39,268 bases of DNA from a virus (Duplodnaviria; Caudoviricetes), in the IMG/VR virus record IMGVR_UViG_3300037791_000039, positions 1 through 39,268 of that record. One strand, written 5' to 3'. The notes under the pieces are model-generated. The model searched no databases, was not told the origin of the DNA, and worked only from the letters and a program-made list of their open reading frames with translations. This document shows positions 1 to 4,277 of the stretch, piece by piece (position 1 is the stretch's first letter; the number at the start of each line of letters is the position of its first letter). The position numbers and the translations under genes are program-made.

Positions 1-223
1 ATTCGTCGCCTTGAGTATCTGCTCAAATGGATTCGTATACTAACTAATGCCACCCACGGCGTGGCTGAGCGGGATGTTGCTGGCTGGTCGCGTCGATGAA
101 GATGGTGTGGACGACGGTCTGGAGATCGACCTATTTGTGGCGATGCGGGGTTGAAGACGACTGGCCTCATTTTACACCGAACGGATTAGTACTACATATG
201 CCCCCCTATCGGTCACACGGTGC

Positions 224-700
224 CTAAGCTGGCCACCAGCCGAACGGGCAGTCCTCGGCGAGGTCACGTGCCTTTTTGCTGAGGACGCAGCCACAGGTTC
301 CCTCACCAGCTTCGCGCATTGAGGCAAGCATGGGGCCGCAGGTGTGGAGATCGCCGTTTCGGTAGACAGCATGGTTGCCGGGGCATTGCCGGCAGACGGC
401 GAGCCGTGCTTCGATCTGTTCATTGCTGGCCATGTCGATACCGAGTGTGGTCTTGGCCACGCTCTTGGCTGCGTGCGAGACTGCAGTGATGACATTTAGC
501 GCTTGCTGCTTGGGGCTTGGCCTCGGAGCAGGCGTTGGGTCACCGCCACGCAGTACCTGCTTCCAGGTCTCATGCGCAAAGTACCAGGCCGTCCCTTCTT
601 CCTTAACTCGGGCTCGCTTAGCGCGATCCATCAGCGTGGGGTCGCGCCGGCGCGTGACCTGCTCGATGTATGCGATTGGGATTTTGATTTCGTCTGCCAT
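224..700 (-). CDS. Cys-rich phage protein with DUF6171-like C-terminus
   Basis: 158 aa; motif RLAVCRQCP...CGCVLSKKAR...CPFGWW; last gene of the late operon. Confidence 0.7.
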   Translation of the reverse strand: MADEIKIPIAYIEQVTRRRDPTLMDRAKRARVKEEGTAWYFAHETWKQVLRGGDPTPAPRPSPKQQALNVITAVSHAAKSVAKTTLGIDMASNEQIEARLAVCRQCPGNHAVYRNGDLHTCGPMLASMREAGEGTCGCVLSKKARDLAEDCPFGWWPA

Positions 701-720
701 TTAGCCAAGGCAGGACCCTT

Positions 721-977
721 CACGGTTGTTATCCCGCTGGCTCTTTATCCAGCGGCTCTACGGCTCTCACCGCAGGTCGGACTATCTCTTCCCTCGGTTG
801 AGGGTCGGGCGCTCGTGGAGGCGATTACTGTCCGGTCTGGACTCGGCCTCTAGTCTCTGCACCTTCCGAAGCGTTCCCGCCTCGGCTTGGCTCAGGATTG
901 CCCTCGTCTTCACGTTAGGGGTTTCCCTGAATTCACCCGATATGGCCAATGTTTGTCTAGGGCTCCTTTCTATTCAC
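721..977 (-). ncRNA. Group I intron ribozyme core, no internal ORF; 5' boundary uncertain
   Basis: Minus strand: P3 UCGGGUG(940-934)/CGCCCGA(811-805); P AAUUCAGGGAAA(933-922); Q AAUCCUGAGC(899-890); P6a CCGAGGCG-GGAA-CGCUUCGG(885-866); R GCAGAGACUA(860-851); P7.1 GAGGC/GCCUC; P8 CCCUC-AACC-GAGGG; S AAGAGAUAGUCC(790-779); P9 CUGCGGU-GAGA-GCCGUAG; P9.1 CCGCUGG/CCAGCGG; P9.0 AC(777-776)/GU(723-722) just before terminal G721. Confidence 0.92.
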
Positions 978-3357
978 AACAGTTCACGTGGACGCCGAGC
1001 ACATCTGCCCAGCCGTCAGATTCGGGGTAGGGGCTGCCGTCAGCGTACTTGTCATACGAAGACAGCCGGACATGGACGATCAGCGTGAACGATGAGCCCG
1101 GTGCGGGCAGCCCGCTTTGAACACACCCGTACAACGTGGCGAGGTCTGGGGTAAACCATGTTGAGCCGGTTTCCCATCCGCCGATTCCACAGGCGTCGTA
1201 CCAGAAGGGCTCATCATCGAGTAGCGCCCCCTGGGGTCGATCACATGCGGCGTATTGGTTCGCGTCGTATCCCGATCGAAACGGTCCGTTCGTACATGGG
1301 TTGTTGCCGAAGCTGTTAGTCACGACAACGACTTTGCCGCCGACCTCAGTGAAGCCAGTGCCATTGTGAGAGATACATGGCCAAACAAGTAAACGATGGC
1401 ACACACGGTGATCGGGTTTGCGAGCCTTGTAGTCTTCGTAGGATTCACCGGGCTGGATCGGGATATGCCCGGCCTGATTGCCTGATACGTTGACCGCTGC
1501 ACATGGCGCTGAAGTGTGGCAGTCGATACAAGGCTCGTCGGGCGGACAGTCATCCATAACCTCGGTCACGTTGACGGGGTTGATCGGCCCGCCCGGATCG
1601 CCTTCGAAGACCTTCCACCAGACACCGCTGTGCTTGACGGCTTTGCCAACGAGCGCGGCCAAGTCGGTGCGCGTCGCACCCCAGATCAATCCGGGGTCAT
1701 CGCATTGGGCCAGGAAGTAGATCGGTCCGCATTCGTCGCGCCTAAACAAGCTGCAGGCGGCGGTTGAGTTGGGTGCCCGCTTTTCTCTGGCATCAACGAT
1801 CACAACAGCAACCCCACCCACAGGCAGCGACAGCCTACCGGGGTGACGCACGCGGTAGCACTTGCCGTCGTGTTTACCCGCGATGATCTTGGTGTGTCTT
1901 GGCAGCTGCACCCACTTGTTGGTTGTGCCTTGGCCGCACTCCCAGATCCGGAACCAACGCTTTGATGGCGGCGGCGGGTTTTCGCCACCACCGGGTCCAC
2001 CACCACCGCCTCCTCCACCGGGCGGATCGGGCGGGTTCCAGCCGAAGCACTCGGCACAGGAAACAAACGCGGGACCAATGCGGTGAAGGATCTCTGCGTC
2101 GGCCGGGATGAGCGTGCTTGCTTCAAACGGATCGACCCAGACACAGAATCCCCGGTGCTCAAAGCGTGTCAGCTTGTCGGGGAGCCTGGAGTTGGGCACC
2201 CAGGTGTCGCGCCAGTTGCGAGCATTCTGTCCCGGGCACAATCGGACTGGTACACCCGAGAGTCCCGGGCAAACGGGGTTGAGTTGTCCGCCGCAAGTGC
2301 AAGCGAGGCAGGACTCGAATTGGCATCGTAGCGCGATCGATATGGCTTCGGTGGGGATGCGCGAGGCCACCGCGTTGAGATCGAGGCTGTGGCACACGCC
2401 GTCGATGCGCTGAACGATCGTGGTCAGGCCGGGGTAATCCAGCAGCAGCGCATCAATCGCTTCTTTAGTTGCCCAGTACGCAACGCCGGGGTCTTTCGCG
2501 TCTGGGCACAGAGCGAACGGAACACCGAGGTTGCAGGTGCTGCAGGGCTGGTCGTTCGACGGTCGAAGTAGTCGGGCGTCGTCGGGGATGAGAGCAGAAG
2601 GAGCGGTTTGCTTTTCGTAGCACCAGCCGCTGTATTCAAATCCATCGGGTGTGTCTGGGAGGTCTGCATCTCTGATCCACACCTCGGGCGCATCGGCCGC
2701 ATTGGGCAGTGCTTGGTCTGCCGGGCAGAGCGATTGCTTCACACCGTGGGTACAGGTGGTGCAATCGTCCTGGGGATTGCCCAGCCCGATCCAGAACGCG
2801 GGGTCCGGATTATTGACTACCGGCCCGGCGGGCACGTTGATGCAGATGCCGCCGTTATCAAAGACACCTTGCTGACCGCGCTCTGTGTCGCTGGGGACGT
2901 AGAGGTTGTTGACATCCCAGCCGCGGGCAATGGCCCTTGGTGCGTGATCGGCGCAGACGGTCGCCTTGATCCCTTTGGGCGGATCGTTGGGCCAAGGCCA
3001 CGCGCCTCCGCCGTCCCCACCACCGATTCCACCACCTGCCCCGGCCCCCGCGCCACCGCCGCCGGGGAATCCTTCACCCGCTTCTTCGCTTGCACTCTCA
3101 CAGCTGGTGCAGTCGTCCCATGGGAACGGGCCACGGTATGCATAGATGCCATCGCCTTGCGGCATGCAGATGCGGCCACCAGCCGGATCGATGGTCCAGC
3201 AGTTACGACTCGCATCGTCTTGTGTATCGAGCTCGAAGCGCTTGGCGGTAGCGGGCAGATCATCCTCATGCACGAAGACACGCAGGTCCGAGGTGTTGTT
3301 TGAACACTTGGTCGCCTCGACCCAGGTATCACAGTTTTGGCAGCGCGGCCAACTCAT
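970..3357 (-). CDS. Cys-rich repeat virion protein, putative tail fibre/receptor-binding protein (795 aa)
   Basis: Start moved to ATG 3357, which overlaps the upstream TGA (ATGA). About 7 repeats with C...C...CxxC and two Gly/Pro linkers; distal position in the tail module. Confidence 0.7.
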   Translation of the reverse strand: MSWPRCQNCDTWVEATKCSNNTSDLRVFVHEDDLPATAKRFELDTQDDASRNCWTIDPAGGRICMPQGDGIYAYRGPFPWDDCTSCESASEEAGEGFPGGGGAGAGAGGGIGGGDGGGAWPWPNDPPKGIKATVCADHAPRAIARGWDVNNLYVPSDTERGQQGVFDNGGICINVPAGPVVNNPDPAFWIGLGNPQDDCTTCTHGVKQSLCPADQALPNAADAPEVWIRDADLPDTPDGFEYSGWCYEKQTAPSALIPDDARLLRPSNDQPCSTCNLGVPFALCPDAKDPGVAYWATKEAIDALLLDYPGLTTIVQRIDGVCHSLDLNAVASRIPTEAISIALRCQFESCLACTCGGQLNPVCPGLSGVPVRLCPGQNARNWRDTWVPNSRLPDKLTRFEHRGFCVWVDPFEASTLIPADAEILHRIGPAFVSCAECFGWNPPDPPGGGGGGGGPGGGENPPPPSKRWFRIWECGQGTTNKWVQLPRHTKIIAGKHDGKCYRVRHPGRLSLPVGGVAVVIVDAREKRAPNSTAACSLFRRDECGPIYFLAQCDDPGLIWGATRTDLAALVGKAVKHSGVWWKVFEGDPGGPINPVNVTEVMDDCPPDEPCIDCHTSAPCAAVNVSGNQAGHIPIQPGESYEDYKARKPDHRVCHRLLVWPCISHNGTGFTEVGGKVVVVTNSFGNNPCTNGPFRSGYDANQYAACDRPQGALLDDEPFWYDACGIGGWETGSTWFTPDLATLYGCVQSGLPAPGSSFTLIVHVRLSSYDKYADGSPYPESDGWADVLGVHVNCCE

Positions 3358-4277
3358 GCGCCGCCTCCTTCGCAAGGACCGTCTGCGTTGTTGATGGCTT
3401 GAAAGACGTGCTCGATCGCTTGGGTCTCGCAGTTGATCTCGGGTGTGATCTGGACGACCGCCCCTGCGCCGATGGGCTGGATCGAAACCCCCGCGGGCAG
3501 GAGATCGACATTGATGCCGCAACCCTGCACGCCCGTCGCGCTGTTGTTCGCTTCGACCGTGTTGTAGGCCGTGCCAGTCAACCCGTCGGGCACGGCCGCC
3601 CAGGTGCCGGCCTGCTGATACTTCATCTGCGTAAAGGGATACGACCAACGGTTATCACCGATCGAGGTTGCCCCACCCAGTTTGCCCCAGACCCAATCAG
3701 CCCCGGGAGTTGTGCCGAGGTTCACCAGCGCCCAAACAACGGTCGATGCAGAACCGCTTCCGGGGGCACTTCCGGGGGCGTGCCAGATGATTTGGGTGCC
3801 GGGCTTGCCGGATTCGAGTTTGGTGGTGTCGCCGTCGATCACACCGGCGGTGGTGTGTTGTTCATCGAGCAGGTCGATCTGTACCGGGCAGATGCCGTTG
3901 ACGTAGGCCCGGCCGATTCCCCCTGCGGGCAAGGGGTCGAGCAGGACCGCGAAATGCCCCGCCGCTGCATGCTCGTCCTCGGTCGGCGTGACGACGGTCA
4001 GCGCGACCTGGCGCAGGAATTCGTCGAGGTGATCGCCGGGCAGGATGATCGGGGCGTTGATCCCGACGACCGCGTTGCGCGAGAGATCAGCCCCGGAGTC
4101 GTTGCGGACCAGGACGATGCCGGTCTGTTTCGTGCCGGCGGTTGCGGGCATGGGACCACGGCCACCGGCCTGCTGCTCGTAGTAAGCGCGCGTGGCATCG
4201 ACGATCTTGTTCCAGTCGTTCGCTGGGATTCGCAGCGGGCTTCCGCTTTGGACATGACGCAAGTGTGCCATCGTCAC
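3354..4277 (-). CDS. Putative tail tip/baseplate-region protein
   Basis: 307 aa; GTGA overlap with the upstream gene; second gene after the tape measure. Function from position only. Confidence 0.6.
   Translation of the reverse strand: MTMAHLRHVQSGSPLRIPANDWNKIVDATRAYYEQQAGGRGPMPATAGTKQTGIVLVRNDSGADLSRNAVVGINAPIILPGDHLDEFLRQVALTVVTPTEDEHAAAGHFAVLLDPLPAGGIGRAYVNGICPVQIDLLDEQHTTAGVIDGDTTKLESGKPGTQIIWHAPGSAPGSGSASTVVWALVNLGTTPGADWVWGKLGGATSIGDNRWSYPFTQMKYQQAGTWAAVPDGLTGTAYNTVEANNSATGVQGCGINVDLLPAGVSIQPIGAGAVVQITPEINCETQAIEHVFQAINNADGPCEGGGA

Follow-up and report, generated by a model that had tools for sequence, protein, structure and literature searches.

Why would a group I ribozyme that lies between two phage genes find the best partner for its guide downstream of its own 3' splice site? 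The question is raised by IMG/VR virus record IMGVR_UViG_3300037791_000039 (Duplodnaviria; Caudoviricetes), a provirus record of 39.3 kb that we analysed over its full 39,268 nucleotides (nt), hereafter the window. Positions are those of the window, and the ribozyme reads on the minus strand, with numbers descending from 5' to 3'. We propose, with a probability of roughly three in four, that the ribozyme is naturally circularly permuted, with the opening in loop 1, and back-splices between these two sites. To judge from sequence comparisons, the downstream-target layout is shared by a conserved phage family of group I ribozymes.

A complete group I core with reversed splice sites

The group I core is complete, and the only Rfam RNA in the window is the RF00028 group I intron at 1007-758 (minus strand), which scores 72.5 bits against a cut-off of 50 (helices in Table 1). 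By sequence, P7.1 and P9.1 are present while P2 and P5abc are absent, and the guanosine-binding pair of P7 is G855-C780. The initial annotation of this locus had found no stable P2 and had placed the guide directly 5' of P3; both statements hold in the sequence, and P2 is missing because only 6 nt separate guide base G947 from P3. The end of the element is set by P9.0, in which A777 and C776 of J7/9 pair with U722 and G723. These two positions are paired in 31 and 29 of the 35 members of the family described below, the second as C-G in 13 and as A-U in 12; the terminal G was placed by hand in 21 of the 35.

The partner of the guide lies 18 nt 3' of terminal G721 (720-703). Seven contiguous pairs form there, exactly as first annotated (U707-A943, G706-C944, G705-C945, C704-G946, U703·G947, A702-U948 and A701-U949), and past the bulged A700 two more follow (U699-A950 and G698-C951), which brings the pairing over the AUG at 700-698 that opens an open reading frame (ORF) of 158 amino acids (aa). 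Group I chemistry begins with a guanosine, which attacks on the 3' side of the U of the U·G pair; the U set free in this way makes the second attack, 3' of the terminal G. As the two splice sites stand in reverse order here, the predicted outcome is back-splicing and no self-excision.

The downstream P1 is conserved across a phage family

Pattern scans over viral, metagenome and genome contigs yielded 102 distinct cores, 38 of which had the guide directly 5' of P3; three of these were cut off and 35 were kept, 29 of them opened in loop 1 (the window included) and six in loop 8. The downstream site was part of no search pattern. The U·G wobble plus three Watson-Crick pairs was found 13-77 nt past the terminal G in 28 of the 29 loop-1 members, compared with a mean of 7.4 and a maximum of 18 of 29 in 1000 shuffles of the downstream 100 nt. 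Conservation of this pairing in homologues, on which the initial annotation had made its reading depend, comes with compensatory changes: position -2 is G-C in 30 members and C-G in four, and position -4 is A-U in one. The wobble at the 5' splice site is present in all 34 members having the site. Monophyly of the C-G type was rejected on 35 rows by the approximately unbiased (AU) test (p = 0.0019), and the switch to C-G probably arose at least twice, as far as the sequences tell.

We aligned 19 of the 29 loop-1 members, those with exons of at most 25 nt, leaving out L181, L188 and eight members with long exons. The wobble was found in 19/19, and the four core P1 pairs were intact in 76 of 76 cells. 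The longer P1 first annotated forms in full in the window, but only the wobble and the three pairs 5' of it are conserved among these relatives, the other pairs being kept in only 8-12 of 19. We therefore rejected the reach of P1 over the AUG as a family feature, as the two pairs concerned occur in only 10 and 8 of the 19. Over the whole structure pairing came to 94.5%, and 37 of 62 pairs had changed on both sides (a level reached in 0 of 500 shuffles; slid controls 31-37%). P1, P3, P4, P6 and P7 were 100% paired, and the guanosine-binding pair was present in 19/19.

In each of six members found later, too, a downstream site matches the guide, at 71, 76, 76, 97, 147 and 179 nt, the last three weak singly because of the long search window. 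Two members of this 97-179 nt group switch guide and target together, giving a third type (GCA with UGCU). An upstream site in the same register occurs in none of the six.

Ordinary cis-splicing would instead use the GGCU at 1011 (Table 1), which the initial annotation rightly judged weaker: it offers three Watson-Crick pairs and three wobbles, and joining it to 720 creates an in-frame UAA at the junction, with a loss of 13 residues from the upstream protein. The site is present and is kept in the relatives L002 and L043, and upstream sites left from tandem neighbours occur in L188 and L100b. An upstream site within 94 nt, however, is found in just 5 of the 29 loop-1 members, and the GGCU of the window sits 64 nt from the guide, in translated Gly-Trp codons and within a predicted hairpin. 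Canonical relatives, moreover, have P2, a P1 hairpin and a wobble G about 30 nt before P3; a canonical-intron control was loose (49/64 versus 29 shuffled) and serves as description only. We regard this explanation as highly improbable. A canonical cis-splicing class was rejected on the same counts (site downstream in 28/29, upstream in 5/29), together with the finding that in L004, where the element is missing, the two separate flanking genes abut. We likewise rejected an in-frame ORF fusion by ordinary splicing, since every 5' exon with a terminal U leads either to a UAA or into a short foreign frame.

The six loop-8 members run in the order P8 3' strand, P7, P9, terminal G, 14-nt exon, P1, and P3 to the P8 5' strand. 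They are literal natural permuted intron-exon layouts, which bears out the likeness to engineered permuted constructs drawn in the initial annotation. In these six (L070, L076, L083, L200, L209 and L212) a related ORF of 265-266 aa always lies 9-12 nt after the element. The closest neighbours of the permuted family in our trees are canonical phage introns. Among GTDB genomes there were three pattern matches, of which two look like chance in protein-coding sequence and one has P2.

A mini-exon hairpin and a proposed mechanism

In the predicted folds of 29 of 34 exons, one of the first three exon bases pairs with a base that lies 3-6 ahead of the cut; counting distinct exons only, the figure is 21 of 26 (shuffles: mean 5.5, maximum 13). 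In the window, a stem of 720-717 with 710-707 leaves 706-703 free for P1. The anticodon stem of tRNA introns holds exon ends together, and by analogy we infer that the exon stem does this work, or that of P10, and so makes the second step feasible in cis. The exon is identical in L002; across the family, exons differ freely in sequence and in length (13-179 nt), and several are well-folded hairpins of 35-179 nt. The second flank pairing of the initial annotation (966-959 with 719-713) does exist in the window. As a functional P10-like element we rejected it: it varies in L002 and L043, has no counterpart by eye elsewhere in the family and competes with the conserved exon hairpin.

We envisage the following course. 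Free guanosine or GTP would attack at U703/A702; the downstream message would thereby be released and carry, two bases ahead of its AUG, an extra G as its 5' end. The 3'-OH of U703 would then attack at G721/A720 while the exon hairpin holds the ends together. Three products are predicted: a downstream RNA that starts with G, a circle of 18 nt, and an upstream RNA whose 3' end, at G721, is that of the folded ribozyme. Formation of the circle would mainly serve to make the first step irreversible.

As to purpose, we tentatively suggest that a late polycistronic transcript is split into an upstream message that is structurally protected at its 3' end and a near-leaderless downstream message that starts with G or pppG. 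In the consulted part of one study (PMC4611024), leaderless translation requires a phosphorylated 5' end with an AUG at it or a few bases away, a need that a GTP-started product would meet. In the first set, 8 of 28 members have the AUG of a long ORF 2-3 nt past the cut, as do two of the six later members at 2 and 4 nt, in about six lineages. A near-leaderless message, as first proposed, thus fits 10 of 34 members and does not fit the remainder; message release would be one recurrent use, and not the definition of the family. A possible but more speculative extension is that phages have turned a permuted group I ribozyme to their own use, as an mRNA processor that needs no protein and that mimics a promoter. 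It would cut the late transcript, give the downstream message a GTP-derived 5' end, cap the upstream message with its own fold and discard the circle so that the cut is irreversible; in the lineage of the window it would be gated by a helix between exon and P6a.

Weighing the evidence

Several observations weigh against back-splicing, or against the purpose that we attach to it. The family members are related and their counts not independent; L188 has no downstream site; L124 has three candidate sites, from which the one left free by the exon hairpin was chosen by hand; and the variety of guides was partly fixed by some search patterns and by our filter. A single C-G origin was compatible with the AU test when it covered 29 rows (p = 0.119), and the 35-row rejection includes long branches. 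Three contigs from RNA runs read through both sites (721-698) with no listed difference and no joint, and contigs on the relative L206 gave nothing relevant, with one partial contig. In the window, a fold that pairs exon with P6a is the predicted minimum free energy structure (-104.3 versus -100.1 kcal/mol, with the pseudoknot not modelled). Finally, 24 of 34 members lack an AUG within 4 nt of the cut, and at least L100b and L169 face a convergent gene.

The RNA data have a narrow reach: four runs had matching contigs at small shares (0.04-0.13), which are uninformative on expression, habitat or absence of processing. The read-through contigs fit precursor or DNA. No joint appeared in the contigs of the four runs, which are built on 31-letter words and so cannot reveal a circle of only 18 nt. 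In run X4, the 1657-nt contig of record 8, matched over 883-939, starts about 7 bases before the match at 939, near the guide, and carries a family-like P3 3' strand; we take this as a weak hint only. The ribozyme might carry out the first step only, as guanosine-dependent cleavage or hydrolysis at U703/A702, or perform the second step in trans to give exon concatemers and no 18-nt circle. Such a small circle is tight, none was seen in the RNA contigs, and a natural group I ribozyme of C. difficile has alternative GTP-attack products in the portion of the report consulted (PMC3649979). Against this, the terminal G, P9.0 and the end-closing exon stem, which are required only for the second step, are conserved, and the same exon design recurs in the loop-8 sisters. 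We consider this course unlikely.

The exon-P6a fold raises a further doubt, namely that the copy in the window is locked off or decaying, with the exon pairing to P6a, hiding the target and breaking P6a. Seventeen of 18 exon bases pair with 887-869, a helix matched by 4 of 4000 shuffles, and the fold is the predicted energy minimum. Tertiary and pseudoknot energies, however, lie outside the fold model, and the core residues are all intact. Also, L002 retains exon and core despite changes in the flanking spacer, the P5 loop and P8, and a base change in L043 makes P6a perfect; provided that the exon of L043, which is cut off, is unchanged, the same change would weaken the rival helix. A locked or decaying copy seems improbable to us. 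Among 20 members tested, the helix occurs only in the window and L002 (0 of 300 shuffles), and we rejected exon-core complementarity as a family trait: L179, L214 and L167 were marginal (0.013-0.057) and the rest ordinary. The helix may act as a switch, may have been left by a template switch, or may be due to chance, given that several tests were made; speculatively, the exon in this lineage may invade P6a and form an 'off' fold that tunes timing. In L259, a stretch at the beginning of the 179-nt exon pairs with the predicted target of the same element, a parallel to the exon-P6a helix of the window.

It is also quite possible that the chemistry is as proposed and serves another purpose, the circle or freed ribozyme being useful or the element a tolerated hitch-hiker, with message splitting incidental. 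The 24 members without an AUG at the cut fit this: their next AUG lies 6-74 nt away, belongs to a very short ORF or is lacking, or a convergent gene comes next. Loop-8 sisters, which end 9-12 nt ahead of an AUG, cannot free a G-started downstream message at a gene start, and both the long, well-folded exons and the existence of tandem copies (L101) point the same way. Against it, exon length and sequence are freely variable, an AUG 2-4 nt past the cut recurs in about six lineages before genes unrelated by eye, the element has no mobility ORF inside it, and core and P1 stay intact across diverged members.

Genomic setting and related loci

The terminase, portal, head and tape-measure genes of the window all lie on its minus strand. 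The ribozyme occupies an intergenic gap in the tail module, from the stop (972-970) of a Cys/Pro-rich ORF to the start of the 158-aa ORF at 700. The upstream ORF, listed at 892 aa, has a probable start at 3357, overlapping the previous stop, for about 795 aa; it had no PHROG or Pfam match, and in L004 an ORF with an N-terminus similar by eye occupies its position. The 158-aa ORF matches phrog_13558 (E = 5e-7), and its N-terminus is common to its five closest homologues. In L004, which lacks the ribozyme, both genes abut via an overlapping stop-start.

Directly after the upstream stop lies a strong Shine-Dalgarno-like sequence (969-963) that is kept in three relatives, yet has no AUG at normal distance. 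It is possibly a stranded ribosome site of the downstream gene. At its two ends the element has a short A-rich repeat, and both features would fit an insertion that separated a start codon from its ribosome site. A promoter scan of window positions 1-1500 found none. Within the element of about 250 nt there is no nuclease or TnpB ORF, only short overlapping ORFs without gene-like signs, and we rejected a homing intron or IStron identity on this ground.

Table 1. Positions of the ribozyme parts, candidate sites and neighbouring genes in the window
Feature	Positions	Strand	Basis or remark
P3 (940-934 with 811-805), P4 (930-925/897-892), P5, P6	within 805-940	-	RF00028, helix covariation
P6a (885-866), P7 5' strand (857-851), P7.1 (850-818)	within 805-940	-	RF00028, helix covariation
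P8 (804-791), J8/7, P7 3' strand (784-779)	within 722-804	-	RF00028, helix covariation
P9.0 (777-776/723-722), P9 (775-758), P9.1 (755-734)	within 722-804	-	RF00028, helix covariation
Internal guide	944-949	-	wobble G947, core G946-C944, optional U948/U949
Terminal (omega) G721, 3' splice site 721/720	721	-	P9.0 covariation, family tail motif
Predicted 5' splice site U703/A702, 3' of the 3' splice site	702-703	-	U·G in 34/34 members having the site
Mini-exon, 18 nt	703-720	-	P1 strand 706-703 preceded by hairpin 720-717/710-707; predicted to form a circle
Upstream GGCU	1011-1014	-	only rival 5' splice site within 94 nt; in coding sequence; paired in predicted local hairpin
Lineage-specific putative anti-target, P6a region	869-887	-	pairs 17/18 exon bases; -28.4 kcal/mol, 4/4000 shuffles as good
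Upstream Cys/Pro-rich tail-module ORF	970-3648	-	892 aa as listed; stop TAG 972-970
Downstream Cys-rich ORF, 158 aa	224-700	-	AUG 700-698, 2 nt past predicted cut
Shine-Dalgarno-like AAAGGAG	963-969	-	directly after upstream stop; kept in L002 and L043, next spacer variable

Related loci show further arrangements. A single intergenic gap of L101 (1457-1952) holds two permuted ribozymes in tandem, and an exon and a target of its own come after each. L188 carries, about 130 nt upstream of P3, the remnant of a deleted first ribozyme (tail, exon and target), and in its second ribozyme, which lacks a downstream target, the canonical order may have been restored. Some prophage loci hold a 5' exon, P1/P2 and a core ending in P8 (L129, L137, L158, L164, L168 and L176), while others hold guide, P2, whole core and coding 3' exon with no upstream exon (L110/L144, L112/L146, L121/L172, L148, L153, L165 and L215). 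These apparent half-introns are possibly split or trans-splicing group I introns. The upstream ORFs of 12 relatives (L100, L142, L152, L156, L162, L169, L178, L179, L197, L198, L204 and L208) share a C-terminal region. A shared upstream gene family was rejected for the window: these 12 proteins align mutually and the protein of the window does not match them (hhalign probability 0.08). A PHROGs search of upstream proteins of relatives gave a match for 0 of 11.

Relation to known ribozymes

Canonical phage group I introns (RF00028, P7.1 type), as portrayed in the consulted sections of PMC11878797, share with our element the P3-P9.1 core, guanosine-binding pair, U·G, terminal G and P9.0. Unlike them, the element has no P2, no upstream exon and no homing endonuclease, its splice sites are reversed and it is intergenic. 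The part of this survey of Bastillevirinae introns that was available mentions no permuted or intergenic elements, and PMC11835236 does not mention permuted introns.

A parallel among natural ribozymes is offered by the circularly permuted (CP) group II ribozymes, which the accessible text of PMC8637638 portrays as free-standing and ORF-less, with reversed sites typically less than 100 nt apart, a small circular product and unknown function. Our element differs from that portrayal in its group I fold, its guanosine chemistry and a 3' product that would be G-started and not branched, and its family in its place in phage intergenic gaps and its two opening points (loop 1 and loop 8). We rejected membership of the CP group II class: permuted sites and a short exon are present, but the fold is group I, without the group II domains D1-D6 and branch A.

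Classic permuted intron-exon (PIE) constructs open P6, and the loop-8 sisters match PIE logic. An engineered Tetrahymena group I construct with the ribozyme first, in the same layout, circularises RNA (Cui et al. 2023, PMC10415121, as excerpted). In that text, as in our prediction for the window, guide and core come first, the target U stands at the 3' end of the insert and two transesterifications lead to a circle; the construct has a long guide, P10 and antisense arms, whereas the window has a natural 4-bp P1 and an exon hairpin. Group I-type chemistry also shapes the 5' region of an mRNA in the C. difficile c-di-GMP-II allosteric ribozyme, according to the portions consulted of PMC10043782 and PMC3649979. 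In contrast to that ribozyme as presented there, no aptamer was detected in the window (Rfam gave RF00028 only), and the downstream site of the window is the conserved P1, not an alternative. The lariat-capping ribozyme likewise controls an mRNA 5' region and does not remove a parasite (PMC8637638, in the accessible text); nothing in the window points to lariat chemistry. Our searches of the open-access literature turned up permuted group I introns of engineered origin and natural permuted introns of group II, but no natural permuted group I intron; a conserved permuted group I ribozyme variant appears to be undescribed.

With two independent opening points, a guide of 4 bp and exons from 13 to 179 nt in length, a natural family of this kind would be to group I what the CP group II ribozymes are to group II. 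Unlike the CP group II ribozymes, it comes with a testable purpose, the production of G-started, near-leaderless messages, and its members, at about 250 nt, may offer compact, evolved scaffolds for RNA circularisation.
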